48,428 nucleotides of DNA from a virus (lineage: Duplodnaviria; Heunggongvirae; Uroviricota; Caudoviricetes): IMG/VR virus record IMGVR_UViG_3300045988_145381. One strand, given 5' to 3'. Each line of letters starts with the position of its first letter. Position 1 is the first letter of the stretch. Under the pieces are notes generated by a model, which was not told where the DNA came from, did not search any database, and was given only the letters and a program-made list of their open reading frames with translations. The translations under genes and the position numbers were made by a program. Below are positions 11,660 to 47,494 of the stretch, piece by piece.

Positions 11660-11664
11660 TAGTA

Positions 11665-12095: not shown

Positions 12096-12104
12096 TTTGT
12101 CACC

Positions 12105-12626: not shown

Positions 12627-12642
12627 AGCAACCTCCTATTAT

Positions 12643-14846: not shown

Positions 14847-14879
14847 CCGATTTTTTCATTGCATCTATCAAAAGATTAA

Positions 14880-16660: not shown

Positions 16661-16680
16661 AAAAATACGACCTCTTTATA

Positions 16681-17064
16681 TTATGCAGATGGATTTTGTT
16701 GTGCGGTGTTAAGGAATATCCCAACCTTCCGGCAAGCCAGATATACATCGGCAATCTTTGCTGATTCAGGAAGGATAACCGCATGTGCATTGAACATTCC
16801 GGTCAGCCATGCTGTTCCAACTTGCGCTGAATCAGTCGCATCAATACTGTGTTGAGCGATACAATACGGTTCTTTTGCCACCCCCTCACCAGAGAGATTT
16901 ATTGGTGCTACAGTGACAACATTTGTTGTCTGATCAATACTGACAAAAGCAAGCAACTCACCTCGATTTACTTTACCGCTGGCAAGTTTAATACTTGTTG
17001 TAATTGCTGGCATACCACCAGAAATAATCAGATTATCTGGTTCAAATGAAAAAGACTCTCGCAT
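16681..17064 (-). CDS. head decoration protein (lambda gpD-like)
   Basis: 127-aa ORF between the protease and capsid genes. Confidence 0.5.
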   Translation of the reverse strand: MRESFSFEPDNLIISGGMPAITTSIKLASGKVNRGELLAFVSIDQTTNVVTVAPINLSGEGVAKEPYCIAQHSIDATDSAQVGTAWLTGMFNAHAVILPESAKIADVYLACRKVGIFLNTAQQNPSA

Positions 17065-17073
17065 AAACTCACC

Positions 17074-18162
17074 TTAATTTTTATCGCGGTTTTTAAATAC
17101 TGACCCAATAACATTTTTTACTACTTCAGCTTGTTTATCTCCGTTGTTTTCTGGTTGATTAACATCAACTGAATCATTCACCTCATTTGCGTCTTCTTGC
17201 CGTTGATTAAGAAAGTTTTTGTTACGCGCTCGCTCTGCATTCATAATTTCCAAAGCAAGTTCAGCCGCAGAAACTCCCGTTTTGAATTTTGCATTCTTAA
17301 CCAGGTCGTCATGACCTGGAATCACGCTATTCTCGATTGTTTCAATGCGCTCGCGTTCTGATTTAACGCCCTCGTCTTTACCAGCATTAAAAACCTGATT
17401 GTATAATTCTGGATGTTTATTTTTTAATTCATCAAGAGTCACAACATCGTCCTCATTTTGTTCATTTAATTCAGTAGATAATTCATTTTTATTTTGTGGC
17501 AACTTTGCGAGCGAATCAGGTAATTTTGAAAACCTTGATGCTTCAAAAGTTATTCCATTGAGCGAAAGCATCCCTTCCTTTATAGAAGCGGATAAGCGCA
17601 TTGGTTTTTCAACTTCGTCAGCAAATCCAAGCTCTACAGCCTCTTCTGCATTTAGCCATGTTTCCTGATCCATTAGTTCAATTAATTTATCCTCAGAAAG
17701 CCCTGTTTTCTCCTTATATGCAGATAAAATACTATCTCGTATCTTATCCATCATCTCAGCAATATCACGTAGTTCATCCGCATCACCAGCAGCAAATGTC
17801 CACGGATTATGGATCATCATCATAGCATTAGATGGGATAACAACTTTATCACCTGCCATTGCAATAATGGTTGCAGCCGATGCAGCAATACCATCAATAT
17901 AAACAGTAATATTAGCCTTATGACGTTTTAATGAAGAAAGAATAGCTTGAGCAGTAAAAACAGAACCACCATAACTATTAATTTTTACGTTGATAGCATT
18001 TGATGATATATCCTTTAATTTATTAACTATGTCAGAAGAAGAAACCTCATCAAATTCGCCAATATATCCGTAGATTAAAAGTTCAGCCGGAGAGTCATCT
18101 TCACCCGTGCTATTTTTTATTTCCCACCAATTAGGCATCATCTGTCTCCATATTTTGTTCAT
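17074..18162 (-). CDS. prohead protease (S49/ClpP-like) with C-terminal scaffold-like region
   Basis: 362-aa ORF; protease-like core (...INSYGGSV...) and an acidic, coiled C-terminal half; overlaps the portal gene end. Confidence 0.7.
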   Translation of the reverse strand: MNKIWRQMMPNWWEIKNSTGEDDSPAELLIYGYIGEFDEVSSSDIVNKLKDISSNAINVKINSYGGSVFTAQAILSSLKRHKANITVYIDGIAASAATIIAMAGDKVVIPSNAMMMIHNPWTFAAGDADELRDIAEMMDKIRDSILSAYKEKTGLSEDKLIELMDQETWLNAEEAVELGFADEVEKPMRLSASIKEGMLSLNGITFEASRFSKLPDSLAKLPQNKNELSTELNEQNEDDVVTLDELKNKHPELYNQVFNAGKDEGVKSERERIETIENSVIPGHDDLVKNAKFKTGVSAAELALEIMNAERARNKNFLNQRQEDANEVNDSVDVNQPENNGDKQAEVVKNVIGSVFKNRDKN

Positions 18163-19705
18163 TTACCTCAGAAACAGGAGGCGTAATCAGCCCCAACTCA
18201 CGGCGAGCATTCTCTTCTCTGCCACAAATTTGTGCGGTTTCTTCCCAGTTAAGACCTGACATTTCAGCCGCTTCCTTTTCACGGGTAGAGAATGTTTCCT
18301 CAACACGCAGTTTTGCAGCTTTGACTTCTTTAAGGGGATCTAATTGGCCTTGTGATGGGCCATACCATTGAGCGCCACTCCATGCAGCGCGATATTCAGG
18401 CCCATAAAAAAAACCAGGGGCAATAACACGACCTTTAGCAACGGCTTCGGCCAACCATTCCTCATAGATCGGTTGGCAAAATGACTGAACCATCCAGTCA
18501 CGTCGCATACGGAACATTTTCCAGGCTTCAAGTAATGCGGCCCTGCTTGCGCTATAACTTGCTGTAAAATGCTTTACCAAGAGTTCGTAAGGGAGTTCTA
18601 AAGCAGCCCCAATTTGACGGCATATGGCGACAACAAAACCATCAAATGCCGTATTTGGTCGCCCGGGATTTGCTGTATCTATCGACTCACCTTCACCCAA
18701 ACTTACTATGGAGCCATTCCCCATTTCTTGGGTGTTATCATCATGGTTATCGATCTGCTCGTACTGAGGGATACCCGATTCACCGACTGGTCCATCAGGA
18801 GCGTCTGTTTTAATAAAGACAGTAAACATCCCTGACACAACCGCAGCAACCAATTCAGCATCGGTGTATCGTCCTAACTGCTTCAATGCTTCAATAACAG
18901 GAGCAAGGACAGGAACGCCACGACGTTGCCCAGGCCTTTCAAAATCCTGCATGACATGCAGAATATTTCTTCTTCCTGTTTTACTCCCATATGCGGGAAT
19001 ACGTTCCCACTTGCGGGTTACAAAACCAGAAGTCCCGGCTGGGTGATGTTTTGCAACCCAGTACGCCACAGGCTCGCTAAATTCACCAACCTCTACGCCA
19101 CCGTAAAGATTTGGTATAAAACGATCCTCTGGATTGCAAACACGATCACCTTCAATTAAATAGACGCACAAATCATATATAACACCCTTACGCTTAATAA
19201 CTGGTAGCGCAGCAAATATATCGCCAGATGTTAACGCAGATATTTGGACCAATGATTGCAATTGTCCAAAAGTACACATTCTTGATGCATCACAATTTGG
19301 AGAATCAGCCCATAATCTAAACTCACGCTCAACATGCTTTTCCCATGCTCGCGCTTCTTCCTGCGTCATCCCCAAGAAATCGGCATCAATGTTCGCATTT
19401 AGTTTTAAACCGGAACCAACAACGTTTGTCCTGATAGTTTTTATTGCGCCAACCGATAGCGGGTTTCCCATGAAGAGATCACGAGAACGCTCACGCAATT
19501 TATCTATATTTTTAACAATATCATCATCAGGAGAACCAGCTTTACTAAACCAACCCCTTAATGATTTTTTATGAGTGCTTGCACCATGACGTGAATATCC
19601 AAGGTTATTAATACCTTCAAGTGCTTCTAACCGTTTTCTTGCCAAAGCTCGATTTAATGCCCTCTGAGGTGAAAACGGCGCAATAACTCGATCAAGAATA
19701 TTCAT
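18131..19705 (-). CDS. portal protein (lambda gpB-like)
   Basis: 524-aa ORF downstream of W-like and TerL genes. Confidence 0.75.
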   Translation of the reverse strand: MNILDRVIAPFSPQRALNRALARKRLEALEGINNLGYSRHGASTHKKSLRGWFSKAGSPDDDIVKNIDKLRERSRDLFMGNPLSVGAIKTIRTNVVGSGLKLNANIDADFLGMTQEEARAWEKHVEREFRLWADSPNCDASRMCTFGQLQSLVQISALTSGDIFAALPVIKRKGVIYDLCVYLIEGDRVCNPEDRFIPNLYGGVEVGEFSEPVAYWVAKHHPAGTSGFVTRKWERIPAYGSKTGRRNILHVMQDFERPGQRRGVPVLAPVIEALKQLGRYTDAELVAAVVSGMFTVFIKTDAPDGPVGESGIPQYEQIDNHDDNTQEMGNGSIVSLGEGESIDTANPGRPNTAFDGFVVAICRQIGAALELPYELLVKHFTASYSASRAALLEAWKMFRMRRDWMVQSFCQPIYEEWLAEAVAKGRVIAPGFFYGPEYRAAWSGAQWYGPSQGQLDPLKEVKAAKLRVEETFSTREKEAAEMSGLNWEETAQICGREENARRELGLITPPVSEVNEQNMETDDA

Positions 19706-19941
19706 AAATCTCTTATCACCACTCGTTTAATTCGTGGGCCTCGGCGTATACCTGCTGATAATCTTTCTACTTCATTACGCCAGTAATCCATCTCTTTTCT
19801 GACTTCTGATAAATCCGCACGAGTTAACTGCCGCGTACCAAATTTATATGACTGACCGCCAATAGCAATAGCGCGATATGCTTCCCGCCAGACAGATAAC
19901 ATCTCTCTGGCTTCAGTCAGAGAAAATGCTTCATTGTTCAT
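19702..19941 (-). CDS. head-tail joining protein gpW-like
   Basis: 79-aa ORF between the TerL and portal genes. Confidence 0.55.
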   Translation of the reverse strand: MNNEAFSLTEAREMLSVWREAYRAIAIGGQSYKFGTRQLTRADLSEVRKEMDYWRNEVERLSAGIRRGPRIKRVVIRDL

Positions 19942-19952
19942 TTATATTTCCT

Positions 19953-21809
19953 CTATATGGTTACGCCTTTACTTATAACTCTACGGCGTCTTCTACGTAT
20001 ACCTGACGAGTTCTGCACATACACATTACCTCGCATTTCCTGTTCGGCAAGCCAGTTAAAATTAGGGTTCAGAATTTCCATCGCGGCAGTTGCATAGTTA
20101 CGGCAATCAAGAGGCTCGTTACGCTCGTAGACTTTCACCCACTTTTCTTTTGTCTGCCCATTTTTATATTCAAATATTTTCTTCTCTGATAATAATCCTT
20201 TAAAGTATTCGGTATCATATCCTCTGTCAGAATCTAATGGGAAATGCATATAACCAGGACCAGGATCATGTAGTTTAATTCTTGCCATGATGGTCCCTTT
20301 ACCATCATCAACCCCCAAATTAAACAACATAGCACCCACACGGTTATTATTACTTGGCTTTCCTATAAATGGTAAACCTACCCCACCACGCCCCCTGATA
20401 GAGTATATTCGCCTTGATTCTCTCGGCTTAGTAAAGCGATATACCTCTGTCGTAAAATGCCCACCAGAGTCAATACAAACGGAAGAAATCTGTAATTTTC
20501 GACCGTCACGGAATGACCAGCTACGGAGTAAGTATTCATCAAGTTGTTTCCAGACAACATCTTGTGCGGGATCACCTGGGAATATTTTATATTCTATCCC
20601 CCATGACTCCTTACCTTTTCCCCAACCGACCAATTCACAAACTAAATACGTGTCCTGTACGTCAACACCAGCACTTAACAATAAAACATCATCTGGTAAA
20701 AACTCTTCAAACCTTATTCTGCGTTGCAACAAGTATTCAGGATCGATATCGTCTTTAGCATCCTCTTTCCATGGCTCACCCAGCTTAAGGTTAATAAACT
20801 CCATTAATCCATTTTTATCGCGGTTTCTGGTTGCTTCCGTAAATTCTTCAACCAGCTCTGACAATGCAACCCACGGGGAGTAAAGACTGTTAATATGAAA
20901 ACCAACAATACCTTTAACTCCAGTATGTTCAGCTATCCATACCCCCTTCGCCAACCAATCAACGTCTGGTTTACCAGATCCGCGCATAATCCCGCCGCAC
21001 TCACAGCACTCATATCTGGCCGTTTCCGGTAACGCCTCACCTGAATCGCTCTTATCCCATCTGACTTGCGACCATTTCATCACCTGCATGGTGCCACAAC
21101 ATGGGCAAGGAACATGGTAGTAACGCTGATCGGAGAGCTTAAACCACTTGTGGATTTTGCTCGTTTCCTCCAAAACAGGAGTAGAAACAAAAACTTTCTT
21201 ACGATTATGAAAGTTGGTAGTACGCTGAATACCTAGTTTTAGTGGGTCGCCCTCCTGCGTCACACCGTAACGATCAATCTCATCAGCTAACAGTATTCGA
21301 ATTGGCCTGGATGCAAGACCTGCTGGGGAATTAGCACCAACAAGTGCTATATATCCACCAGCGTAATGCTTCATACGTATAGTCGTGCTGGACTTTTTGG
21401 CTGCACCGCGCCCCTCTTTCCCTTCATGCAGCTTGTGTTTCAAACCAGGGGAATATTTGAACGTCGGATCAATACGCTCTTTTGAAAAAGCCTCAGCCGC
21501 CTCTACCGTTGGATAAATCATCAACTGAGGAGATGGCTCCTGATCTGCAAAGTAACCCATAACATTTAGCTGTAATTCGGATTTACCAATTTGCGAGCTA
21601 CATTGCATCACTACTGTTTCTGTATCAGCGTCACCAATAACATCCATTGGTTCACGCAAATATGGCACTCGGCTTGTACGCCACGGCCCTGGCTCTGGAG
21701 ACGTTCCCGGCGCTACATGACGATACTTATCAGCCCATTCGGAAACAGTTAGCCGTGATTTAGGGCGAAGCGCACGGAAAAAAGCGGTGCTCCATACTGT
21801 TTCGCCCAT
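19953..21809 (-). CDS. terminase large subunit (lambda gpA-like)
   Basis: 618-aa ORF following the small-subunit gene; lambda A-like size and order. Confidence 0.8.
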   Translation of the reverse strand: MGETVWSTAFFRALRPKSRLTVSEWADKYRHVAPGTSPEPGPWRTSRVPYLREPMDVIGDADTETVVMQCSSQIGKSELQLNVMGYFADQEPSPQLMIYPTVEAAEAFSKERIDPTFKYSPGLKHKLHEGKEGRGAAKKSSTTIRMKHYAGGYIALVGANSPAGLASRPIRILLADEIDRYGVTQEGDPLKLGIQRTTNFHNRKKVFVSTPVLEETSKIHKWFKLSDQRYYHVPCPCCGTMQVMKWSQVRWDKSDSGEALPETARYECCECGGIMRGSGKPDVDWLAKGVWIAEHTGVKGIVGFHINSLYSPWVALSELVEEFTEATRNRDKNGLMEFINLKLGEPWKEDAKDDIDPEYLLQRRIRFEEFLPDDVLLLSAGVDVQDTYLVCELVGWGKGKESWGIEYKIFPGDPAQDVVWKQLDEYLLRSWSFRDGRKLQISSVCIDSGGHFTTEVYRFTKPRESRRIYSIRGRGGVGLPFIGKPSNNNRVGAMLFNLGVDDGKGTIMARIKLHDPGPGYMHFPLDSDRGYDTEYFKGLLSEKKIFEYKNGQTKEKWVKVYERNEPLDCRNYATAAMEILNPNFNWLAEQEMRGNVYVQNSSGIRRRRRRVISKGVTI

Positions 21810-21814
21810 GAGGT

Positions 21815-22375
21815 TTATTCTTCCTGCTTAATAAATCGGGATTCCTGGAGCGCCTGAAGCGCAAAATTAATCTCGTCTTCAATAATGCGTTCGATCTCCC
21901 TGGCTGTTTTGCCTTCACAACGGGGAGCTGCTCTTGGAGCAATACTAAATAAGCGGCTACGCAATTCATTAGCTGCCAGAAATGCATCATCCCTGACCGC
22001 ATCTTTAGCGATGAGAGAGCCTTCCTTTTCTTCAAATTCAAGGCGTTTCAGCTTTGCCTGATAAATTTTTTCTGCGGTCTTAGCCTTGTTGAATTGCACC
22101 GCAACACCGGAAGTACCACCAGCTAATCCGGCATCATCAGCGGGTAACTCTGGTTGTTCCGAAGATATCCCATGCCCTCTTTTTCCATTTTCAGCAGATA
22201 CCTCACGACCAACCTGTCGGCTCGCTTCATAAGCCGCACTGGCTTTATCAAAATCCAGCTTGCCGCTTTTCAGCACTGGAATGCGACCGGAACGACAGAG
22301 CTTCGTAACCATTGCCGGAGAAATACCTTTCCGGCGAGCAAACTCTGACTTACTGACGATGGCCATTACTTGCAA
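21815..22375 (-). CDS. terminase small subunit (putative)
   Basis: 186-aa ORF with N-terminal HTH-like segment (...ARRKGISPAMVTKLCRSGRIP...) directly upstream of TerL. Confidence 0.5.
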   Translation of the reverse strand: MQVMAIVSKSEFARRKGISPAMVTKLCRSGRIPVLKSGKLDFDKASAAYEASRQVGREVSAENGKRGHGISSEQPELPADDAGLAGGTSGVAVQFNKAKTAEKIYQAKLKRLEFEEKEGSLIAKDAVRDDAFLAANELRSRLFSIAPRAAPRCEGKTAREIERIIEDEINFALQALQESRFIKQEE

Positions 22376-22956
22376 CCATTAGCAAGATACTGAACAAATC
22401 CCTCATGCGTTTCATGCGCGTCGTGGTACTGACGATAAACATCCAGCAACAATGCAATTTCCATATCCGTCGCGGGAATACGTTCTTTATCAATAGCCAG
22501 GTACTTAATTTGAACAACAGGGGAAGAATTATCGTCTTCTTCCTGCGGCTGTTCATCGCTTAACATTTCGTCAAGCTCTGCATCATTAAACCCAAGCAGA
22601 TCAATATCAAAATCATCATCCATTAACTCTTTGACTTCTTCGGCCAGAAGCTGCATATCCCAGCCAGCATTTAAGGCCAGCTTGTTATCTGCAATCCTGT
22701 AAGCCTTCTTCTGTTTTTCAGAAAGGTTACTCAACCGAATCGCCGGAACTTTATCCATTTCCAGAATTTCGGCTGCTGCAAGCCGACCATGCCCCGCAAT
22801 CAGTTCATTCTTTTCATCGATCAGCACAGGATTAGTGAAACCGAACTCACGGATACTGTTCACCAACTGTTCAACCTGCTCATCTGAATGAGTCCGTGAA
22901 TTTTTGGCGTATCTGAGCAGCTTACCGACTGGTAAATATTCGATTTTTAGAGCCAT
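22366..22956 (-). CDS. ParB-like nuclease-domain protein
   Basis: 196-aa ORF with ParB N-terminal domain pattern (...NPVLIDEKNELIAGHGRLAAA...); paralog of 25623..26246; overlaps the TerS start. Confidence 0.65.
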   Translation of the reverse strand: MALKIEYLPVGKLLRYAKNSRTHSDEQVEQLVNSIREFGFTNPVLIDEKNELIAGHGRLAAAEILEMDKVPAIRLSNLSEKQKKAYRIADNKLALNAGWDMQLLAEEVKELMDDDFDIDLLGFNDAELDEMLSDEQPQEEDDNSSPVVQIKYLAIDKERIPATDMEIALLLDVYRQYHDAHETHEGFVQYLANGCK

Positions 22957-23513
22957 TTTTTAACCGCCATAACACAACAGGTTAAAGAAAACTGTTTAAC
23001 TTATTGATACTAAAAGAGAAAAATGACGATCTTTTTACTCATAAAAAATCACACAAACCAGCATAATCATCTGATTTTATTAAGTTTTTATAAGTAAAAA
23101 GGATCTTGAGATGGTGTTTTGGTTAAAAGATTGGATGTATTTGCATGATTTATAACGATTTTTATCAGAACAACATCACATTGGTTAAAGATCTGCGCGT
23201 ATCTTGATGATCTAAAAGAAAATTTTCTACTTTCTTTTTACCAGCACAAATACAGCAAAAAATCACGTTTTCCCGATATTTTTCAATGAGATGAGTAAAT
23301 TTCTTTTACCGCAACTTTTAACCTAACTTTTTTCACGTTTAGCTAGCCGAACATCGGGGTTCGAATGACCCGCATCCAACGCTTTTGGTCAGAAGGACCC
23401 AATTCTGCCGGACGATGAAACGATGCTCGTGCTCCCCCACAGACAGCCAGCGAGCGACGCTACAGAACACAGTGAATACACTATGCATAACAACACCATC
23501 AACCACACGATGA

Positions 23514-24233
23514 TTAACGAGAGAAGGTCTTAGAAAGAATGTCATCAATAGCCTTTGTGACTTCATCAGCAAACGCATCCTCACCAGCACGCAGCGCCAC
23601 GCCATGCCAATCAAGACGCTGCGAATAGTTAGGTTGCTGGATAAACGTAAGGATCAACGTAGGACGCCGCCCAACGCGCTGCCAGACGCCTGGTTGAAGC
23701 GGGTTACTTGTACCAGGTCGAACAACAAAAAACTCCGTAGGCTTGCCCTGACGGCGATTTTGATGCGCATCTCGCTGAACTCTTAGGCCAGATAAGACCT
23801 GCTGTAATTGCCCCCGCGAAATATTCCCGTATTTGTCCAGCTTTGCGCCGGGACCAGGAGCAAGCTGCCAGCCGTTAGGCAAATATCCACCAGCCCTTAG
23901 CGCCCCTTCTGAGCGTTTGTACTGTCGTTGGCCACCTTCGATTTGCGGAGTCAACGTTACAGGGGCTGGCGTTCCTCCCCATTCACGAGCATACACAATG
24001 GCTGTAGGATCACTCTTCTTTGCGGCCAAAACGTAAGTAGAGTTCTGAATCCACGGCGTGGGCCTGTCAAATACCCGATTAATTTCATTCTTAATCGCAG
24101 CCTGAGAAGCCTTTGCCGTTCTGGTTGCCGCAAGCGCCATTGCGAACGGCAATTCGCGTTCTTCAAGGCGCTGGAGTTGTCGTTGAATATCCTGAGAAGA
24201 AAAATCCATCTTTATCTCAATTCTGTCAGCCAC
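23514..24233 (-). CDS. hypothetical protein
   Basis: 239-aa ORF downstream of the ParB-methyltransferase gene; no recognisable motif. Confidence 0.45.
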   Translation of the reverse strand: MADRIEIKMDFSSQDIQRQLQRLEERELPFAMALAATRTAKASQAAIKNEINRVFDRPTPWIQNSTYVLAAKKSDPTAIVYAREWGGTPAPVTLTPQIEGGQRQYKRSEGALRAGGYLPNGWQLAPGPGAKLDKYGNISRGQLQQVLSGLRVQRDAHQNRRQGKPTEFFVVRPGTSNPLQPGVWQRVGRRPTLILTFIQQPNYSQRLDWHGVALRAGEDAFADEVTKAIDDILSKTFSR

Positions 24234-24249
24234 CAGCGCCTCCTACACA

Positions 24250-25629
24250 CTACTTAATCAACGGCCGGAAAGCCGCCAGCACATCATCAGATCGTCCGAT
24301 TGTTGAACCACCAGGCAACGGCAACTCAAACTCAAAACGAACAGCTTTCTCCAGACTCGCCCAACTAAGGGAATCATCGTTAATGACGTGCAAATACCAG
24401 CTCTTACAGTTGAATATTGACCGCTTAATCCTGAAACCATGTACACGACACAACTGCTTCACTTCATCATCAGAGTGGAACTTCTGGTAAAACCAGTGCC
24501 CCTTCCGGTACAACGCGGTAAAACCGTTATGATCAATAAAATAAAGCCGGCTTTTGGAACTCGCCGCTTGTGTTTGCTTCAGGACTGTTTCCAGCTCTCC
24601 ACGGCTACGACCAGAAAAGAATATTGACCCACCAGCTTTACACAGGCCTTTCAGAACCGTCAGAACGGACCATTCAGCCTCGACACTGTCGACCGAGTTC
24701 AAAACGCTATCGCAAATCACGTAGTCGTAACGCCCTCGCGTTTTTAAGTCATCCACCAGCGTATCAATCATCCGGTTTGTTGCAGCCCTATCCAGAGTGT
24801 TTCCTGCGCCCTTACGGCGGAAAAGCTCGAGATCATGCAGGTTATACCCCTTTGCCCTGAGCATTCGCGCGTAGTCTCCCTGCCCCGAACCAAAATCAAT
24901 TCCTCTTGGCGTCTTGGCAATGATCGGGAGGATCAACGACTCATACAGGTTTGATTTCAGGCTGCCACCATTACGCAACCGCATAAGCTGCGCATACGTC
25001 TGGATGTATGTTGTTTTCTCCAGATGAGAATACTCAAATACACCATAAGTTTTATTCAGATAACTTTGGTATTTTTCCTTCTCAACATCAGGGATCACAA
25101 ACACCGTTAGCGGTGTGCGCGTCATCTTCGCTGCTAATGCATACTGAGCACAGTGAATAACCTCACCAGACTGAGTAGCAACACAACCACCCCACGGACC
25201 ATACTTGATAACCAGTTCCGCTATGTTCTTTCGAACATATGCCATTTTCGCGCGCATATTGCCTGAGATCTGGCTTGCCGATACCTGAACAAAACCATGC
25301 TTATCTTCCAGACCGGACACCCTGCAACGCTCATCTCCGCTATCAAAATCCGTTCCGTTATGCAGTTGGTTAAACCGTACTTCGTCGTATACCGTCGTTT
25401 CACAGGGCAACACATACACCGCAGCACGCGTTATTCCCAACTTACGTAGCGCCTTCGTCCTTTGGTGTCCCGCCACCAGCAAATCGCCGCGCACTATCAA
25501 TGGCTTCACAAGCCCCAGCTCCCTGACGCTTTCCGCCAGCCTCGCAAGATCATCCTCACCGATAAAACGCGGGTTATATTCCGCGCCGCGTAGGTGCGTT
25601 ATGTCGTAATTGAGGTGAAGCATCAGCAC
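24250..25629 (-). CDS. ParB-like N-terminal domain fused to class I SAM-dependent methyltransferase
   Basis: 459-aa ORF; N-terminus ParB-like (...LIVRGDLLVAGHQRTKALRKLG...); motif I IDFGSGQGDYARML and motif II-like YDYVICDSVLN. Confidence 0.65.
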   Translation of the reverse strand: MLMLHLNYDITHLRGAEYNPRFIGEDDLARLAESVRELGLVKPLIVRGDLLVAGHQRTKALRKLGITRAAVYVLPCETTVYDEVRFNQLHNGTDFDSGDERCRVSGLEDKHGFVQVSASQISGNMRAKMAYVRKNIAELVIKYGPWGGCVATQSGEVIHCAQYALAAKMTRTPLTVFVIPDVEKEKYQSYLNKTYGVFEYSHLEKTTYIQTYAQLMRLRNGGSLKSNLYESLILPIIAKTPRGIDFGSGQGDYARMLRAKGYNLHDLELFRRKGAGNTLDRAATNRMIDTLVDDLKTRGRYDYVICDSVLNSVDSVEAEWSVLTVLKGLCKAGGSIFFSGRSRGELETVLKQTQAASSKSRLYFIDHNGFTALYRKGHWFYQKFHSDDEVKQLCRVHGFRIKRSIFNCKSWYLHVINDDSLSWASLEKAVRFEFELPLPGGSTIGRSDDVLAAFRPLIK

Positions 25630-26246
25630 ACCTCCCCAGCCAGCAATGCGGATACAAATCCGATATAGCTGCCATTATCATCAACATAACGAGACACCGC
25701 GCAGTCAAAACGATCCGCTTCCTCATCCGTTGCCGGGATTTTATGACCTCCAAATGACAGGTACTGAACTTTTACGCCTGATTTGGCCTCATCCTTCTCA
25801 AATGGGATATCCATACCCTCTGTGTCATCGTAGACCGCCGCACTCAATAAGTTATCCAGTTCGCGCTGAGTAAAACCAATTGAGTCCAGAGCAAAATCAT
25901 CGGCCGCAAGATCTGCAAGCTCCGCGCTTAACAACTCTTCATCCCAACCAGCATTCAGCGGAATACGGTTGTCGGCCAGACGATATGCCTTCTTCTGATT
26001 CTCCGTTAGCCCAGCCAGAACAATGCAGGGAACATCATCCATCCCCAACTGAGTGGCCGCAGCAATTCGACCATGACCAGCAATTACAACGTTGTTCTCG
26101 TCTATCAGGATCGGATTAGTCCATCCGTACTCCTGTATGCTGGCAACAATCTGATCTACCTGCTCCACGGAGTGTGTGCGAGCGTTCTTTTCATAACCAA
26201 TCAACACAGAAAGTGGTAAAGAAACCACATTAAGATGTTTTGTCAT
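25623..26246 (-). CDS. ParB-like nuclease-domain protein
   Basis: 207-aa ORF, paralog of 22366..22956 (...NPILIDENNVVIAGHGRIAAA...QKKAYRLADN...); coupled to the methyltransferase gene. Confidence 0.65.
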   Translation of the reverse strand: MTKHLNVVSLPLSVLIGYEKNARTHSVEQVDQIVASIQEYGWTNPILIDENNVVIAGHGRIAAATQLGMDDVPCIVLAGLTENQKKAYRLADNRIPLNAGWDEELLSAELADLAADDFALDSIGFTQRELDNLLSAAVYDDTEGMDIPFEKDEAKSGVKVQYLSFGGHKIPATDEEADRFDCAVSRYVDDNGSYIGFVSALLAGEVC

Positions 26247-26480
26247 GCCGTTTATCCGCTAAAATCCCCTCGCTTGTGCAAGCAAGTGGGCCTCGGTTTG
26301 TATCCACGGCACCCTGTGGGTATGAATGACTGTCGTCAGGTCGCAACTGACGGCAGTCGCCCACCTTCCAGTAATAAAAAAGCCACCAGCATTAACTCCA
26401 CAGCAAGCTGGAGTTAATGAGACAGCTTTGGTTTGCGCATTATCGCAGCCCCTGATAAGCACAAGAGCTGCTGTAATGCG

Positions 26481-26891
26481 TTACGCAGGGATCAAACGGA
26501 GGCAGCCGTTATTTACCTCAATACGAGAGTATTCCGGCTTACCATCAACGATTCCGGTAATGACAAGTTCGCCATCAGACGAGCATTCTTCTTTGTCGTC
26601 TTCAAGTACCGCGCCTTCTGGCAAATCAACACAGGCAAAAACAGGGCAGCCAGGATAACGATCATCTTCCATCGCAATCAGCATCGACTCACCGAACCAC
26701 TCTGTGGTAGCACGGCCATCAGCCGCCTGATAGTGAATCAGATACTGGTTTTCGCCATTTGCATACTGAGCACGGGCTTGAACTTCTCCCCATTCGTCAC
26801 TGATACGCATTGTTACCAGTTGGGATAATTCAAACTTAAACGGAACAGACTCTGCACCAATGGCAATCGGTTTATCTTCTTTCTTTTCCAT
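26481..26891 (-). CDS. hypothetical acidic protein (start trimmed to the Met with an aggtga Shine-Dalgarno)
   Basis: ORF 26481..26960 with probable start MEKKEDKPIAIG...; an upstream hairpin terminator overlaps the longer ORF. Confidence 0.4.
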   Translation of the reverse strand: MEKKEDKPIAIGAESVPFKFELSQLVTMRISDEWGEVQARAQYANGENQYLIHYQAADGRATTEWFGESMLIAMEDDRYPGCPVFACVDLPEGAVLEDDKEECSSDGELVITGIVDGKPEYSRIEVNNGCLRLIPA

Positions 26892-26940
26892 AACATCACC
26901 TGAAAATAAAAAGCCCCGCGACACCGCGAGGCTGTAAGAG

Positions 26941-27093
26941 TTACTTTCGATAGAAATCAAGGCGCATTTGCTCCCGCTTAAGCCGAAAAGCTCTCTGCGC
27001 CACTAAGATGCGCCACAGGACACCAGCAATAACCACCAGCGAGATACAAAAACACACGGCCACAACCATCAGAAAAATGCCAACACCATTCAT
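26941..27093 (-). CDS. small hydrophobic membrane peptide (50 aa, MNGVGIFLMVVAVCFCISLVVIAGVLWRIL...)
   Basis: Read directly from the sequence (below the ORF-track size cut-off); ATGA overlap with the upstream 68-aa gene; hairpin terminator follows. Confidence 0.4.
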   Translation of the reverse strand: MNGVGIFLMVVAVCFCISLVVIAGVLWRILVAQRAFRLKREQMRLDFYRK

Positions 27094-27296
27094 GAAACTA
27101 TCCATTCTTCAATGAATATCTCCAGTAATGTCAAGAGATACGCCGTCCCCAGCGCGGTTCCTACCGATATAGCTAAGACAAACCTCAAAGATAACGAGGT
27201 GTCTTTCGCTTTTCTCCAGACGTAAGCGCCAGCCAGAAATACCAACAAATCTCTTATTGGAAGCGGAAACCAGAACAAATCACTCGGCAAGTCCAC
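27090..27296 (-). CDS. small membrane protein (68 aa, two predicted TM segments)
   Basis: Hydrophobic ORF coupled to both neighbours. Confidence 0.4.
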   Translation of the reverse strand: MDLPSDLFWFPLPIRDLLVFLAGAYVWRKAKDTSLSLRFVLAISVGTALGTAYLLTLLEIFIEEWIVS

Positions 27297-27298
27297 GG

Positions 27299-27766
27299 TT
27301 ATATCCTTCCATTCATTTTTATCGGATGACCAGATAGCCTTACGCAGTTGAGCTGTAAAGCTCCGGTATCAACTAAATAATCAACTAACATGATTAGAGA
27401 TTCATATTCAGCCAGATAGCTAACCTGACGCATTCGACCGCCGTTGTTCTCCAGAATGTCGGCCACCTTTGCAGCCAACTCGCTTAGACAGGAGAACTTA
27501 TTCCCATATATCGTTTTATACTCGCGCTTCTGGCATTCTTCTGGCATTCTTCTGGCTTGCGGCTGGTTATCGAGAGCTATCAGCGACCGATAACTATCAA
27601 GGAAGTCCACAATCTCATTCAGGCACTCTTTGGCTGCCTCATCGTGACTTTTTCCGTATGCTTCATGGAGGACTTTCATCCTCATCATTGCTCCGTCACA
27701 CATAATCGAAAGCGCGTAAAGCACATCACTAATCGCCATTTCTTTTTTGGTGCTTGTCGAAGGCAT
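27299..27766 (-). CDS. hypothetical protein (first gene of a terminator-flanked moron)
   Basis: 155-aa ORF with aggaga Shine-Dalgarno; terminator upstream; contains an 11-bp tandem repeat at 27531..27560. Confidence 0.5.
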   Translation of the reverse strand: MPSTSTKKEMAISDVLYALSIMCDGAMMRMKVLHEAYGKSHDEAAKECLNEIVDFLDSYRSLIALDNQPQARRMPEECQKREYKTIYGNKFSCLSELAAKVADILENNGGRMRQVSYLAEYESLIMLVDYLVDTGALQLNCVRLSGHPIKMNGRI

Positions 27767-27773
27767 CCCATGT

Positions 27774-27800
27774 TCTCCTTTGTCTGGATGTAAAAAAGCC
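27774..27800 (-). terminator. rho-independent terminator
   Basis: gcctcggcaattgccggggc hairpin followed by tttttt on the minus strand. Confidence 0.55.
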
Positions 27801-27840
27801 CCGGCAATTGCCGAGGCTCGTTGTTCGTTATCGTTACGGT

Positions 27841-28041
27841 TTAATGCTCGCGTCGTCCGGCGACAACTTCGGATTTGTATTTCAGGTCGCCCAGCAAGAA
27901 TTGCAGTTTAAGCATCTTTGCCGCCGTGTAGTTCCCTGATTCCACAACCTCTTTCATGAGGTCATAAACGGCCGCTACATCATCAGCCAGGAACTCTTTG
28001 CGTTGCTGCTCAGTCGCACGTTTGAAGGAAATACGCATCAC
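27841..28041 (-). CDS. hypothetical protein
   Basis: 66-aa ORF coupled to 28038..28307. Confidence 0.35.
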   Translation of the reverse strand: MMRISFKRATEQQRKEFLADDVAAVYDLMKEVVESGNYTAAKMLKLQFLLGDLKYKSEVVAGRREH

Positions 28042-28307
28042 TCATCATCTCCTGCCGCACATACAACCTCACAAAAAACATCAGCGGAATGTTTCTCCTT
28101 GAACGAATGACGCTCAAAACCGCACTCAATATCAGGCGCAAAAACATCCACCACATACGGTCTTTCAGAATGTTGGTTTTCCCAACGATAAACCGTAGTG
28201 ACGTTGAAATGTTTTAACGCTTCACGGAACTCAACGCTGCCCGTCAGGTTTTTTGAGGTCAGGTATTGCAGGAGGTTTTTTACTACTTCACGGTCTTGTA
28301 CTTTCAT
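28038..28307 (-). CDS. hypothetical protein
   Basis: 89-aa ORF directly downstream of copy 1 of the conserved promoter-leader element. Confidence 0.45.
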   Translation of the reverse strand: MKVQDREVVKNLLQYLTSKNLTGSVEFREALKHFNVTTVYRWENQHSERPYVVDVFAPDIECGFERHSFKEKHSADVFCEVVCAAGDDE

Positions 28308-28314
28308 CGGGTTA

Positions 28315-28425
28315 TCTCCGGTTTAACCAGGGCGGGTATCGCTCGGTTTCGGGTATAACCTTAGGAAATTTTTTCCCACCTGTAAAGCACTTTTTATATA
28401 AATCTATAATTATATAATTCTATGA
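28315..28425 (-). promoter_or_regulatory. conserved promoter-leader element, copy 1
   Basis: Near-identical to 34827..34940 and 44347..44457; gene-direction read gives TTTACA-17bp-TAAGGT, a -10-like TATACC, a conserved leader and ggaga Shine-Dalgarno; AT-rich palindrome upstream. Confidence 0.6.
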
Positions 28426-29007
28426 CACTTGCCAGAGAGCATCATGCAACTGGATACCTCCGTTGCACTGGTTGCCCCAGCCATGCCAGCCATCAGGTAA
28501 ATCACCGCGAGCAAATAGCTCAATACGAGGAACATCACCTAACAGTCTTACCAGCTTGTCACGAACCACATCAGGCTTCCGTGAATGTTCCAGACGAGGC
28601 GATGTAAACGACTGAATGATCCCCGCATCAAGACGTGTCGGTAGTTTGCCTTTCACTGCAAACAAGCAATCTTCACTGTTTGCACGAGTCATATGCCCCA
28701 TCCCCATCACCAGCTTATCTGGTTGTCGGCTACCACATTTGTTCCATGTGAAGCCCTTCATGGTCATAAGCCTGAATCCCCATGCTTTCACCACCAGCAA
28801 CGCTTCTTCTGGCTGAGTCGGAACCCACCACATGGCCAACAAACACGATTCAGGATTAGCAAGCTGCCAGACAGGAATACGAGCAATATCCTCAGCTTTC
28901 ATCGTTGGATACTTAAAACCAGCTCCACGATTCCCATCCTTACACTTATCTTTGTATTCCCAGGGGGGATCTGCATAAATCAGATTAAACAATGCAATTG
29001 CCTCCAT
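28420..29007 (-). CDS. MT-A70-family N6-adenine DNA methyltransferase
   Basis: 195-aa ORF with the DPPW catalytic motif (...IYADPPWEY...). Confidence 0.7.
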   Translation of the reverse strand: MEAIALFNLIYADPPWEYKDKCKDGNRGAGFKYPTMKAEDIARIPVWQLANPESCLLAMWWVPTQPEEALLVVKAWGFRLMTMKGFTWNKCGSRQPDKLVMGMGHMTRANSEDCLFAVKGKLPTRLDAGIIQSFTSPRLEHSRKPDVVRDKLVRLLGDVPRIELFARGDLPDGWHGWGNQCNGGIQLHDALWQVS

Positions 29008-29315
29008 GTTAGTTGTGCCTCCGGCGCTTATCTCCGGCAGTCATAACGCTGGCCAGCTCTACAGCAGACACAACGAAAAGGGCACTAACCAGACTGATTA
29101 ATGCCCTTGCCTGTTGTGTGCCGGATATCGCCCGACAACGCTGTTTTGGTAACACGGCTACAGTTCCGTGCCGCTCCAGCTTTTACCCCTTTGCGGATAA
29201 CAGGCCCTGCCTGTAACTTAGCCCCACGTTCGCCCGAAATGCGCACCAGGCACGCATAAAGATGAGCACGAAGGAAGTAACTCCACCGCGCTTATCTTTA
29301 TGTGTGAGAGTGAAT

Positions 29316-29391
29316 TGGTGGCCCCTACCGGATTTGAACCGATGACCGTGCGATTATGAGTCGCCTGCTCTAACCACTGAGCTAAGGGGCC
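29316..29391 (-). tRNA. tRNA, anticodon CAU (Ile2-like or Met)
   Basis: 76-nt cloverleaf GGCCCCTTAGCTCAGTGGTTAGAGCAGGCGACTCATAATCGC...GGTTCAAATCCGGTAGGGGCCACCA with encoded CCA; 5' half matches E. coli ileX-type tRNA as recalled from memory. Confidence 0.85.
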
Positions 29392-29560
29392 ATATTTGAT
29401 CTGTTTGTCTGGTGTGGCGCCGCGCACGAAAATCCCAGCCAATAAATTCAGGATTTTTGGGCGCGGCGGCATATCAGACAAACATGGTTGATGCGTGCGC
29501 CCATAAGAAAAGCGCATAGAATGTTGTAACTATATATTTATATAATTATAGAAATATATA

Positions 29561-29770
29561 TTACTTTCGGCAGTTGATTTCCCATGCCCTGTTATGAGCC
29601 AGAATATCTTTCTTTGTCTGGCGGTCCATAACATCGATGTCGTGATCAGTCAGGTAGATGGGCTTTACCCAATCACAGGCGGTATCAACCACCACCGGGA
29701 CGCTTCCACGACTCCCGCAGCTCGCGATCAACATCGTCATCAGCCATATGGTTAACACTCTGCTGTACAT
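29561..29770 (-). CDS. o-spanin (Rz1-like lipoprotein)
   Basis: 69-aa ORF with lipobox-like LIASC, out of frame inside the 3' part of the i-spanin ORF. Confidence 0.55.
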   Translation of the reverse strand: MYSRVLTIWLMTMLIASCGSRGSVPVVVDTACDWVKPIYLTDHDIDVMDRQTKKDILAHNRAWEINCRK

Positions 29771-29963
29771 TCCCCACCTCTTTTGTCACTTCTATACGCC
29801 GCTCCGCAGTGGCTTTTACGGCGGCTGCATTCTCATTAATGCGCTGCTTTTCAGCTTCATATTCGGCCTTTTCTCGCCCCTTCATACGACCAAAACCAAA
29901 TGCGCCGAATGCAACTAATATAATGGTGCCGATAAATGACAAAACGGCTTTCAAACCAGTCAT
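29685..29963 (-). CDS. i-spanin (Rz-like)
   Basis: 92-aa ORF with N-terminal TM segment and charged coiled region; immediately downstream of the endolysin. Confidence 0.55.
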   Translation of the reverse strand: MTGLKAVLSFIGTIILVAFGAFGFGRMKGREKAEYEAEKQRINENAAAVKATAERRIEVTKEVGNVQQSVNHMADDDVDRELRESWKRPGGG

Positions 29964-30502
29964 ACCACCACTCGCTCTTTCATCCAGCCATAGACAAACG
30001 ACTCATTTGCTTCGCGTTTCTCCGCCAGGTCCAGATAACGGTCGCCCTGCGTACAGTTAAGGGCCGTCAGCATTACCCGTTCGCCGTCTTTTCCCCGATT
30101 CCCAAGATAAGCACGTAATGCCGCAATGGTGCGCGGGCCGATTCGCCCATCCACATCCATATCTGGATACAACTTCCCGCCACGGTTGAAAACATTCAGC
30201 CAACGTTGAAGCATCTTCGTAGCCACAGTCGGCCCCATGTTGACGCCCGTATCGCACATCTCAGCCGCAATATCAGGGGAAAATTGCGCCACCTGGTCAA
30301 AACGAGGCCCATACCAATAATCACCTTCAAGAATCATCAGAGCCTGTTCTCGCGTCAGATCTCGCATATCGCCACGGTATCCGTGAGCACGGGCAGTATT
30401 CTGAGTGATGCCCCACATTGTTGGGCCTCCCTTGTCGTCAGGGTGATCAACATAACCGCCCTCTTTTCCAAGAATGCTGTTAAAAATCTCATCTTTGGTC
30501 AT
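29960..30502 (-). CDS. endolysin, GH108-type muramidase with C-terminal peptidoglycan-binding region
   Basis: 180-aa ORF; N-terminal ...GKEGGYVDHPDDKGGPTMWGIT... motif characteristic of GH108 lysozymes. Confidence 0.8.
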   Translation of the reverse strand: MTKDEIFNSILGKEGGYVDHPDDKGGPTMWGITQNTARAHGYRGDMRDLTREQALMILEGDYWYGPRFDQVAQFSPDIAAEMCDTGVNMGPTVATKMLQRWLNVFNRGGKLYPDMDVDGRIGPRTIAALRAYLGNRGKDGERVMLTALNCTQGDRYLDLAEKREANESFVYGWMKERVVV

Positions 30503-39459: not shown

Positions 39460-39502
39460 TATATAATTATAGTTTTATAGATTTATATAAGAGGGGATAC
39501 AC

Positions 39503-47451: not shown

Positions 47452-47494
47452 TCTATCCATATGTTCGCTCTTGCGTCCACGGAAAACCAACGTA

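Follow-up and report, generated by a model that had tools for sequence, protein, structure and literature searches.

The window, by which we mean the whole 48,428-nucleotide stretch analysed here, is well supported as an E. coli phage-plasmid of ~48 kb with a contractile tail, a lambda-type head, a gpA terminase, RepA and a ParA locus of its own. The ORF listing bears out the four minus-strand ORFs (207, 459, 239 and 196 aa) reported by the first-pass annotation, the AT-rich gap of ~560 bp among them, and the overlap of TerS with the stop of the 196-aa ORF. The features of the locus are as follows.

19953–21809, minus strand: TerL, lambda gpA-type large terminase subunit with its own nuclease domain (phrog_15 at 1e-258)
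21815–22375, minus strand: TerS, terminase small subunit with an N-terminal HTH (phrog_57 at 7e-42; HTH-like match at residues 5–39)
22366–22956, minus strand: ParB196, 196 aa, first gene after cos (ORF; Pfam ParB_N; phrog_620)
22957–23513, no strand assigned: putative cos region (the AT-rich gap), comprising cosN and a repeat-bearing cosB-like segment (record termini, conserved block, repeat clustering)
22959–23323, no strand assigned: five TTTAACC copies between cosN and the first gene (22959+, 22980-, 23121-, 23183-, 23317+)
23359–23370, minus strand: inferred 12-nt cohesive end GGTCATTCGAAC (record breaks), within the conserved block GGGTCATTCGAACCCCG (23355–23371)
23514–24233, minus strand: p239, 239 aa, last gene before cos (phrog_1924; HK97 gp10-like fold)
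24250–25629, minus strand: tri-domain ParB-methyltransferase fusion (Pfam, PHROG, 44-sequence alignment, AlphaFold2 model)
~24253–24957, minus strand: domain D3 of the fusion, class I SAM methyltransferase with a C-terminal extension (motif I DFGSGQG, E268; CDSVLNSVD replaces DPPY)
~25030–25320, minus strand: domain D2, a degenerate second ParB fold (invariant Tyr163 in place of the Box II Arg)
~25336–25629, minus strand: domain D1, ParB fold (invariant YNPR, GHQRTKA, FNQLHNGTD)
25623–26246, minus strand: ParB207, 207 aa, first gene of the cassette (ORF; Pfam ParB_N; phrog_620)
28420–29007, minus strand: stand-alone MT-A70 methyltransferase, 195 aa (Pfam MT-A70 3.4e-23; phrog_359; PADLOC MTase_II)

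The flagged stretch had been taken for a single cluster. Its ORFs and domains stand, but the one arrangement does not: there is good support for two adjoining units with cos between them. The first is an accessory cassette of two genes, ParB207 and the fusion. The second, equally well supported, is the start of the packaging module, in which p239 is followed by cosN with its 12-nt cohesive end, the TTTAACC repeats, ParB196, TerS and TerL. The two units are evolutionarily separable. ParB207 and the fusion are missing from 16 sister loci in which p239, cos, ParB196, TerS and TerL persist with conserved flanks; the cassette is optional and widespread, and in relatives ParB196 is a fixture of the packaging module. 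The 239-aa protein, previously listed as unknown, is not wholly so: it is a basic protein with a phrog_1924 match (2.5e-97), and its fold resembles that of HK97 gp10 (a neck or tail component), with an insertion. It is a member of the packaging/morphogenesis module and not of the ParB/methyltransferase cassette.

The AT-rich gap appears to be the cos site, the 12-nt end being read from the ends of database records. This 12-mer, which occurs once in the window, is where three Yersinia phage records break, 12 nt apart. The breaks fall at 23371|23370 in vB_YpM_41 and at 23359|23358 in vB_YpM_44, each contiguous across the break; therefore, the 12-mer was assigned to opposite ends. In the comparison with two related loci (L018 and L021), the surrounding block is the best-conserved intergenic stretch, the rest being divergent. 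Of the 14 TTTAACC copies in the 48.4-kb window, five cluster in a 365-bp segment (about 0.1 expected), and the homologous region of L021 carries more GTTAACC copies. Probably it is TerS, a protein with an N-terminal HTH, that binds these repeats. The TerS start is more likely ATG 22366 (183 aa, as in RefSeq), where a TAATG overlap couples ParB196 translationally to TerS. In related loci, the TerL genes are annotated with the Pfam domains GpA_ATPase and GpA_nuclease. Lambda-type cos packaging (cosN, cosB, Nu1, gpA) shares with this module the gpA-type TerL, the HTH-bearing TerS, the 12-nt offset between reported genome ends, the conserved cosN block and the repeats between cosN and the first gene. 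It differs in that here TerS is separated from cos by a ParB-fold gene, and the gene directly before cos is HK97 gp10-like.

Pfam ParB_N matches all three ParB-like proteins of the window. ParB196 passes the gathering cut-off (26.3 bits), and the 207-aa and 459-aa proteins score just under it, at 23.9 and 24.3 bits. The label "nuclease domain" used in the first-pass annotation is an old Pfam name; the fold is now read as an NTP-binding switch, and the present analysis brought out no nuclease function. ParB207 and ParB196 are paralogues (48% identity over the full length, E 5e-62), and both match phrog_620 at about 1e-74 to 1e-75 (4e-74 for ParB207 in the PHROG search). Both are acidic, with a pI of 4.3 and a net charge of -20 for ParB207 and a pI of 4.5 for ParB196. 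ParB207 has an N-terminal domain of the NTP-binding type (Box II IAGHGR), followed by a C-terminal module of ~50 aa that is conserved; Pfam found no HTH domain in it, and the ParA-interaction motif [LFI]G[KR]G[LFI] was not found.

These features bear on whether the ParB-fold proteins serve plasmid partition in the prophage-plasmid state, which we consider highly improbable. The ParB_N fold is present, some database records say "partitioning protein", and the element is a low-copy phage-plasmid. The N-terminal fold, with equivalents of Boxes I, II and III, is indeed shared with canonical ParABS ParBs. The proteins nevertheless lack the HTH, the ParB-type C-terminal dimerisation domain and the ParA motif, carry GHxR where canonical ParBs have GERR, and have no adjacent parA. 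TIGR00180 scores are 16–40 bits, below the cut-off of 58.45. A separate pair of ParA and an 82-aa gene lies 13 kb away on the other strand (38806–39751), so that the proteins stand outside the element's partition locus, and their homologues are found beside terminases, for the most part in integrated prophages and lytic-type contigs. The absence of the HTH and the ParA motif, together with the ParA locus elsewhere, led us to reject a partition-ParB identity for all three proteins.

The closest relatives of the small ParBs point in another direction. ParB196 and ParB207 match the N-terminal ~150 aa of phage and prophage ParB–N6_N4 DNA methyltransferases (phrog_498; PADLOC MTase_II PDLC03229; the B. 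cereus ATCC 10987 ParB–MTase) at E 1e-50 and 43–59% identity, and the more distant relatives of ParB196 (43–53% identity) are ParB_N + N6_N4_Mtase proteins in 10 of 10 cases. Such enzymes share the slot directly upstream of TerS and TerL and are likewise probably expressed late. In L115, L118 and L119, the loci in which TerS or TerL was found as well, the ParB_N + N6_N4_Mtase gene lies directly upstream of the terminase gene. ParB196 is thus well supported as a methyltransferase-less version of the ParB domain found in enzymes that occupy the same slot elsewhere. The small ParBs differ from these enzymes in carrying the ~50-aa C-terminal module instead of a methyltransferase domain; the window's fusion differs in having a methyltransferase of another class, devoid of DPPY, and an only distantly related ParB domain.

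The same position could mean that the ParB-fold proteins, ParB196 especially, are packaging accessories, i.e., NTP-dependent nickases or adaptors that aid terminase at cos like the HNH proteins of HK97-like phages. ParB196 is the first gene after cos, is coupled to TerS and is kept in every relative of the packaging module; ParB-fold genes adjoin terminase genes or genome ends in many phages; and a B. cereus prophage ParB–methyltransferase encoded beside TerS nicks non-specifically (PMC3592412). In our opinion this role is nevertheless unlikely. The pair of ParB207 and the fusion stands ahead of four unrelated terminase families, of both cos and headful types, and is dispensable in sister elements with the same packaging genes. 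Moreover, a gpA-type TerL already includes a nuclease, the small ParBs are strongly acidic and devoid of a DNA-binding domain, and the full DNA methyltransferases that fill the same slot in other phages suggest modification and not cleavage. The terminase lies no more than 5 kb downstream of the cassette. It is of the GpA type in 14 loci; among 21 of the remaining loci, Pfam gave some hits, to Terminase_6 (up to 9 ORFs), Terminase_3 (2) and TerL_ATPase/TerL_nuclease (1).

The fusion is 459 aa long if started at GTG 25629, but ATG 25623 is the likelier start (457 aa, as in RefSeq), being preceded by a GGAGG Shine-Dalgarno sequence and overlapping the ParB207 stop as TGATG. Domain searches of the 459-aa protein returned ParB_N and Methyltransf_23 (Pfam) and a full-length match to phrog_5475 (1.6e-265). 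In the AlphaFold2 model (pLDDT 94, pTM 0.90), D1 and D2 repeat the same secondary-structure topology, and D1 is predicted to pack tightly against D3; D2 also aligns in register with the small-ParB profile (hhalign probability 83%, E 9e-6). The fusion's own ParB domain is 24% identical to the small ParBs. Motif I is kept across 44 homologues, and the acidic residue E268 is invariant in the family. Judged by the model and these residues, the SAM-binding fold is intact. No DNA-binding domain was detected in ParB207 or the fusion.

The element does carry two distinct methyltransferases, as had been proposed, namely the fusion (Methyltransf_23) and the MT-A70 protein. The latter has a DPPW catalytic motif at residue 13 and is the only canonical DNA adenine-N6 methyltransferase of the element. 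To call the fusion a DNA methyltransferase is an assumption, because a catalytic motif of DNA amino-methyltransferases, [DNS]PP[YFWH] (DPPY), or a PC motif was found in none of its 86 homologues. Among the nearest solved folds of its methyltransferase (Foldseek, PDB sequence matches), there is no DNA methyltransferase; these are small-molecule, tRNA and protein methyltransferases at 10–16% identity, including Trm9, UbiG, glycine N-methyltransferase, CcbJ, METTL9-like and uncharacterised class I enzymes. The domain forms a well-separated family of its own, almost confined to the ParB-fused architecture.

It is therefore possible, if somewhat doubtful, that the fusion methylates a target other than DNA: RNA or tRNA, a protein (perhaps its partner ParB or one of the host's factors), or else some nucleotide or small molecule lodged in the ATP-binding ParB pocket or close to it. 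The cassette would then be an anti-defence or host-manipulation module and not an anti-restriction DNA methyltransferase. Besides the fold neighbours, the missing motifs and the separate family, the tight packing of D1 with D3, the presence of MT-A70 and the accessory distribution of the cassette fit this reading, as does a third conserved gene, Cys-rich and ~145 aa long, which lies beside the ParB/fusion pair in 20 of 46 loci and hints at a more elaborate pathway. On the other hand, the closest relatives of the partner ParB are domains of true DNA methyltransferases that occupy this very slot, phage DNA methyltransferases are typically encoded immediately upstream of terminases, and the established functions of ParB folds are mostly DNA-centred. 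The fusion has a pI of 9.2, and its methyltransferase domain D3 is strongly basic (+10), which fits nucleic acid, RNA included.

Among the functions initially suggested (modification, anti-restriction or packaging), DNA modification or anti-restriction is the most plausible. Our best guess, unproven and with about an even chance of being right, is a late, ATP-gated nucleic-acid methylation module for anti-restriction. The cassette would be expressed late, from the strand that also bears the lysis and packaging genes; D1 would bind ATP, D2 would act as an in-cis partner mimicking the ParB N-domain dimer, and ParB207 may be the cognate activator or regulator of the fusion. The basic methyltransferase domain would methylate nucleic acid, the likeliest target being phage DNA that has replicated and awaits packaging, which would shield the progeny from restriction in the next host. 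Ordinary N6-adenine, N4-cytosine or C5-cytosine methylation would not be the chemistry, as the fusion lacks the corresponding catalytic motifs.

The fusion is not unprecedented. ParB-CTPase–Methyltransf_23 (PF13489; PHROG 5475) has already been catalogued as a phage-enriched fusion and is found in hundreds of sequence clusters; the available part of Kaljevic et al. 2025 (PMC12704722) describes the same Pfam pair in phage and prophage contexts and deals with the fusion and its nucleotide binding only. According to that text, a tested "Mtase23" fusion binds ATP, and its Box II, GHQRTKA, is identical to the invariant motif of our family; ATP binding by D1 is carried over from this homologue, recognised by motifs alone, and is thus presumptive. 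Relative to the same text, the present analysis adds the degenerate second ParB fold, the pre-terminase position and the near-obligate partner: in 44 of 46 non-redundant viral loci, the fusion has a small ParB upstream, with identities as low as 33%.

The activator role suggested for ParB207 is modelled on the ParBs associated with 5mYOX, the phage thymidine dioxygenases (PMC13229309). Those proteins, which have an NTP-binding and a C-terminal domain and no DNA-binding domain, activate a neighbouring DNA-modifying enzyme. ParB207 is likened to them by layout, being similarly small and similarly placed. There the ParB is required for enzyme activity and specific to its cognate enzyme, and activation here would be by analogy; the 5mYOX partner is an Fe/2OG dioxygenase, whereas that of ParB207 is a SAM methyltransferase itself carrying ParB folds. 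The charges of the two cassette proteins are opposite (-20 for the small ParB, +12.6 for the fusion). It should be noted that the acidic ParB207 might just as well inhibit the enzyme or serve as a substrate, and that, with MT-A70 already a canonical DNA methyltransferase, a second is not obviously needed.

Gene order suggests late expression of the cassette. In a published study, M.EcoGII and other prophage methyltransferases are silent in the lysogen, and its authors infer that lytic development turns them on (PMC5778455). Promoter and terminator scans were uninformative. The late-strand block that holds the cassette also includes the MT-A70 gene, located 2.2 kb upstream.

The minus-strand stretch 22366-26246, which the first-pass annotation had presented as a single arrangement, resolves into two units. 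One is a cassette made of a small ParB-fold gene (ParB207) and a gene fusing ParB and methyltransferase domains (the fusion); the other, from which the cassette is separable, is a packaging module of p239, a candidate cohesive-end site (cos), a second small ParB-fold gene (ParB196) and the terminase subunits TerS and TerL. The individual ORFs and domains reported earlier are real: minus-strand ORFs were found at these coordinates, and Pfam and PHROG matches agree with the domain calls.

Genes and gap of the two units
19953-21809, minus strand: TerL, gpA type
21815-22375, minus strand: TerS
22366-22956, minus strand: ParB196, 196 aa
22957-23513: AT-rich gap, 557 bp
23514-24233, minus strand: p239, 239 aa
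24250-25629, minus strand: the fusion, 459 aa
25623-26246, minus strand: ParB207, 207 aa

By Pfam, each of the three ParB-like proteins has a ParB_N domain, the 459-aa one also has Methyltransf_23, and the protein encoded at 28420-29007 is an MT-A70. PHROG matches of ParB207 and of ParB196 (phrog_620, about 1e-74 for each) are far stronger than those of Pfam, and the two are full-length paralogues (48% identity, E 5e-62). Junction sequences favour ATG 25623 as the start of the fusion (TGATG overlap with GGAGG ahead) and ATG 22366 as the start of TerS (TAATG overlap); RefSeq annotation agrees in both cases. ParB207 and the fusion are translationally coupled. A promoter and terminator scan of 22300-29600 returned fewer promoter-like sites than shuffled sequence did, and none in the gap.

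The separability of the cassette is seen in a sister clade, fetched by its ParB196 (76-86% identical), in which 16 loci contain p239, the gap, ParB196, TerS and TerL and lack both ParB207 and the fusion. In one further locus, all that stays of the fusion is a remnant of 62 aa, located upstream of p239 (L094:3519-3707), which suggests that the cassette was lost by deletion and not that it was never acquired. The upstream boundary of the cassette is the stem-loop CAGCAGCTCTTGTGCTTATCAGGGGCTGCG (26444-26473, minus strand; -19.8 kcal/mol for a 42-nt segment), which directly follows an acidic 137/159-aa ORF and is kept in the cassette-less locus L098; as it has no T-run, it is not a classic terminator. 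The downstream flank, the GGAGG-N5-GTG start of p239, is conserved as well. Given these flanks and the 16 cassette-less loci, ParB207 and the fusion are optional, and ParB196 is part of the packaging module. The acidic ORF itself (26481-26960, minus strand; pI 4.3, charge -16; phrog_1935, unknown function) is also kept in relatives without the cassette. Also upstream of the cassette, two GC-rich hairpins with T-runs at 26912-26933 and 27796-27819 (both minus strand) resemble intrinsic terminators on the coding strand; because the first lies inside the longest, 159-aa reading of the acidic ORF, the shorter RefSeq start at about 26891 is favoured.

A function of the gap is suggested by the GenBank record ends of independently assembled Yersinia phages, whose records are flagged circular. 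The vB_YpM_41 record ends at window position 23371 and begins at 23370, and that of vB_YpM_44 ends at 23359 and begins at 23358, the sequence being continuous over the break in both. Exactly 12 nt separate the two breaks, and the 12-mer GGTCATTCGAAC falls on opposite ends of the two records, the pattern that a 12-nt cohesive end gives. In relatives whose fusion has diverged to 90% and 69% identity, the intergenic region is for the most part poorly conserved, and its most conserved block is GGGTCATTCGAACCCCG with the flanking sequence. The TerL of the window is of gpA type. From the record ends and the conserved block we infer that the gap is the cos site, with the candidate cosN at 23355-23371 containing the putative cohesive end. 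Between it and the ParB196 start, 5 of the window's 14 copies of TTTAACC are gathered within 365 bp (22959-23323); the homologous region of another locus (L021) has even more copies of GTTAACC. TerS, which has an N-terminal HTH, is the likely binder of these repeats.

p239 occupies a fixed position, no other gene coming between it and cos. Its PHROG match is phrog_1924 ("minor tail protein"), its named BFVD matches are "tail component" or "HK97 gp10 family", and the gp10 fold is recovered. In phages without ParB or Methyltransf_23 genes, homologues of about 30-40% identity immediately precede TerS and gpA-type TerL. Judged by fold and neighbourhood, p239 probably has a structural or morphogenetic role in the packaging and head-tail module and no connection with the cassette. 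An enzyme or nuclease was considered for p239 and dropped, as neither Pfam nor NCBIfam gave a match, no motif looks catalytic and the fold search indicates a structural protein.

The ancestry of ParB196 is suggested by its relatives. A tblastn search reached 513 phage records, in which the domain stands alone or is fused to adenine methyltransferases, frequently at one end of the record. All 10 of the longer distant relatives tested (43-53% identity, ~150 aa) are ParB_N plus N6_N4_Mtase proteins; wherever TerS or TerL was detected, they lie directly upstream of it, and at L115 such a protein comes immediately after a p239 homologue. The N-domains of ParB196 and ParB207 match phrog_498 at about 1e-50. 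Unlike the phage ParB–N6_N4 DNA methyltransferase fusions whose N-domain they share, neither small ParB has the N6_N4_Mtase domain, nor any methyltransferase domain by Pfam. By architecture and slot, ParB196 thus belongs to the lineage of phage ParB–DNA-methyltransferases, as a member that has no methyltransferase, and sits in that lineage's usual place. In a distant phage (L008:3925-7153), a C5 DNA methylase and two N6_N4 methyltransferase ORFs stand just upstream of the p239 homologue, so that the pre-cos region looks like a place where DNA-modification genes in general are parked.

The first-pass annotation had asked whether these might be ordinary chromosome-partition ParB proteins. They are not. 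Scores of the three proteins against TIGR00180 are 40.1, 29.8 and 16.4 bits, with the N-domain alone aligned and a cut-off of 58.45 bits; Pfam reports no HTH family in any of them, and the ParA-interaction motif (L/F/I)G(K/R)G(L/F/I) is absent from ParB207, the fusion and ParB196. What they retain is the ParB/Srx (ParB-CTPase) fold, with equivalents of Boxes I, II and III and GHxR in place of GERR. Aligned with Thermus thermophilus Spo0J, IAGHGR of ParB207 pairs with VAGERR and LADN with LVEN, and ParB, Noc and Spo0J structures are among the hmmsearch matches. Moreover, the sole ParA of the window is encoded elsewhere with its own partner, as located through a RefSeq plasmid 98-99.6% identical to the window.

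Plasmid-maintenance genes located through the RefSeq plasmid
38806-39459, plus strand: ParA
39503-39751, plus strand: 82-aa partner of ParA
44802-45149: RelE/ParE-type toxin
46612-47594: RepA

In the RefSeq twin, too, the ParA gene is followed by a small ORF, and the 82-aa partner is a probable small centromere-binding protein. With this pair 13 kb away on the opposite strand, the element is already equipped with a partition locus, and a role of the three ParB-fold proteins in plasmid partition is effectively excluded. The twin also encodes contractile-tail, lambda-type head and lysis genes, RepA and a toxin-antitoxin pair. The element is common: 121 PLSDB plasmids match 18000-30000, among them E. 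coli plasmids of about 48 kb at roughly 99% identity, and 62 plasmid records match the cassette and 62 the ParB196-TerS segment, almost always with an identity of at least 95%. Yersinia phages vB_YpM_39, 41 and 44 and Escherichia phage vB_EcoM-613R2 share region 22000-26500 at 99% identity.

Among 46 viral loci with fusion relatives (77 fetched, de-replicated at 85% identity), a small ParB gene lies upstream of the fusion in 44, mostly overlapping its start, and the pairing persists at fusion identities down to 33%. A terminase follows within about 5 kb, of gpA type in 14 loci; among 21 of the remaining loci, Pfam identifies Terminase_6 (up to 9 ORFs), Terminase_3 (2) and TerL_ATPase/TerL_nuclease (1), plus portal genes. 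As the terminase types vary, the conserved unit is a small ParB followed by the fusion, placed before whichever packaging system a phage has. A ParB–methyltransferase next to TerS in a B. cereus prophage nicks DNA non-specifically (PMC3592412). For the cassette, which lies ahead of the terminase and is dispensable in relatives, a packaging-accessory role is unlikely; for ParB196, a part of the module, it is less so, and such a role is conceivable. Directly 3′ of the fusion, 20 of the 46 non-redundant loci carry a third gene of about 145 aa (L026:1610-2041, L027:2595-3044, L006:2210-2644, L004:9419-9883 and 16 other loci), which overlaps the fusion end in L026 and L006. Its product has the motifs FDxxxHCA(R/K)CL (HCxxC) and TCRNFQFG, is matched by neither Pfam nor PHROG, and has no counterpart among the ORFs of the window; the ancestral module may thus comprise three genes. 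In two Bradyrhizobium chromosomes (L004 and L005, ~11054-17196), the prophage cassette is near GGACT/AIG2-like, Amidoligase_2 and MTS/N6_Mtase-like methyltransferase genes, a set reminiscent of base-hypermodification or peptide-tagging systems.

The fusion combines PF02195 and PF13489 in one polypeptide and belongs to the ParB-CTPase–Methyltransf_23 family (PHROG 5475; "unknown function"; 1.6e-265 over residues 3-459), the full architecture of which is shared by 716 homologues or more, each about 460 aa long. In its AlphaFold2 model (pLDDT 94, pTM 0.90), residues 1-98 (D1) form a ParB fold with invariant YNPR, GHQR(TKA) and FNQLHNGTD, and the predicted strand-helix order of D1 is repeated in residues ~104-200 (D2). 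With 86 sequences, D2 aligns in register to a profile of small ParBs (hhalign probability 83%, E 9e-6), the methyltransferase domain serving as control at 0.7%. The direct comparison of D2 with D1 is weak with 86 sequences (E 0.016) and not significant by hhalign with a 44-sequence alignment (E 0.92 global, 0.1 local). Taken together, profile, register and predicted topology support a ParB duplication, short of proof, and D2 would be a degenerate second ParB fold, in which an invariant Tyr replaces the Box II arginine. In structural terms, D2 could take the place of the partner subunit in a ParB N-domain dimer.

Residues ~225-459 (D3) form a class I methyltransferase. Its SAM-binding fold, called earlier from motif I, is intact in this model: DFGSGQG and the acidic E268 of strand 2 are invariant, and many class I methyltransferases are Foldseek matches at probability 1.0 (UbiG by sequence profile, 8e-7). 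In the fusion, the SAM site is intact, as is the nucleotide pocket of the ParB domain. Unlike N6-adenine and N4-cytosine amino-methyltransferases and C5-cytosine methyltransferases, the fusion lacks catalytic motif IV and Pro-Cys: no (D/N/S)PP(Y/F/W) or Pro-Cys motif occurs in the window's fusion or in 86 homologues; the MT-A70 protein, by contrast, has DPPW at residue 13. The nearest Foldseek and profile matches are small-molecule, tRNA and protein methyltransferases at 10-16% identity, never a DNA methyltransferase. An exhaustive search with the methyltransferase domain gave 391 clusters (50% identity), nearly all of them residues ~200-460 of a ~460-aa protein; no stand-alone relatives appeared, so this search offers no substrate hint.

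Since the fusion has the catalytic motif of no known DNA methyltransferase class, action on a non-DNA substrate is a serious, if somewhat unlikely, rival to DNA modification. The fusion is basic (pI 9.2, with +10 on the methyltransferase domain) and both small ParBs are strongly acidic (pI 4.3-4.5, net charge about -20), so that the charges of ParB207 and the fusion are complementary. The reading that we prefer is that the cassette would be expressed late, D1 would bind ATP, D2 and/or ParB207 would gate the enzyme, and the basic domain would modify nucleic acid, most probably phage DNA before packaging, guarding it against restriction.

Published work bears on parts of this scheme. In Kaljevic et al. 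(2025; PMC12704722), Methyltransf_23 is one of the most strongly enriched domains in ParB-CTPase fusions of phages, and an anti-defence role is suggested; Fig. S6 of that paper reports, by DRaCALA, ATP binding by a "Mtase23" fusion with the Box II sequence GHQRTKA. The same heptad is invariant or nearly so in the fusion family, to which the tested protein would belong on its motifs. In a 2026 study, phage ParBs consisting of an NTP-binding and a C-terminal domain, and devoid of a DNA-binding domain, were shown to activate the cognate thymidine dioxygenases encoded beside them (PMC13229309). Like these 5mYOX-associated ParBs, ParB207 has an NTP-binding domain and a conserved C-terminal module, has no DNA-binding domain, and is encoded beside its enzyme (44 of 46 loci) with overlapping genes. 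Our literature search on the ParB–Methyltransf_23 family found no paper giving a substrate or phenotype. PADLOC matched only the ParB part of its MTase_II model and detected no defence system. M.EcoGII, a non-specific prophage methyltransferase, was considered as an analogue and dropped because the paper on it shows that it has no ParB domain (PMC5778455).

A bolder and, in our opinion, quite unlikely proposal is that the small ParB and the ParB–ParB′–methyltransferase constitute a new ATP-gated enzyme for modifications outside N6-adenine, N4-cytosine and C5-cytosine, with the acidic ParB as obligatory activator; it might act on a different atom of phage DNA, on RNA or tRNA, or on a nucleotide. 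If true, ParB folds would be general switches for phage modification enzymes. A non-canonical modification, or a small ParB acting as general activator, would extend ParB-fold regulation of DNA-modifying enzymes; just another anti-restriction methyltransferase would be an ordinary result. ParB-fold genes near terminases are among the commonest unexplained features of phage genomes, and the locus splits two roles that commonly go under the one name "ParB-like nuclease", one copy lying in the packaging module and one linked to a dedicated methyltransferase. The element is common and the domain fusion already catalogued; added here are the two-unit split, the cos assignment, the proposed degenerate second ParB fold, the near-universal small ParB partner, the position independent of terminase type and the derivation of ParB196 from ParB–DNA-methyltransferases. 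An E. coli/Yersinia phage-plasmid with phage isolates, 62 near-identical plasmids and a naturally cassette-less sister clade is a tractable system, in which one could ask what this widespread, presumably ATP-binding ParB–methyltransferase family does.

The MT-A70 gene of the window (28420-29007, minus strand, 195 aa) is stand-alone, and other phages fuse MT-A70 with ParB (phrog_21315); members of phrog_359 are longer by ~120 aa at the N-terminus. We considered a pairing of ParB with MT-A70 as split halves of the phrog_21315 kind and dropped it, the small ParBs matching that family weakly (1e-5 to 1e-4). Between the MT-A70 gene and the lysis genes lies a tRNA-Met gene with a CAT anticodon (29316-29391, minus strand).
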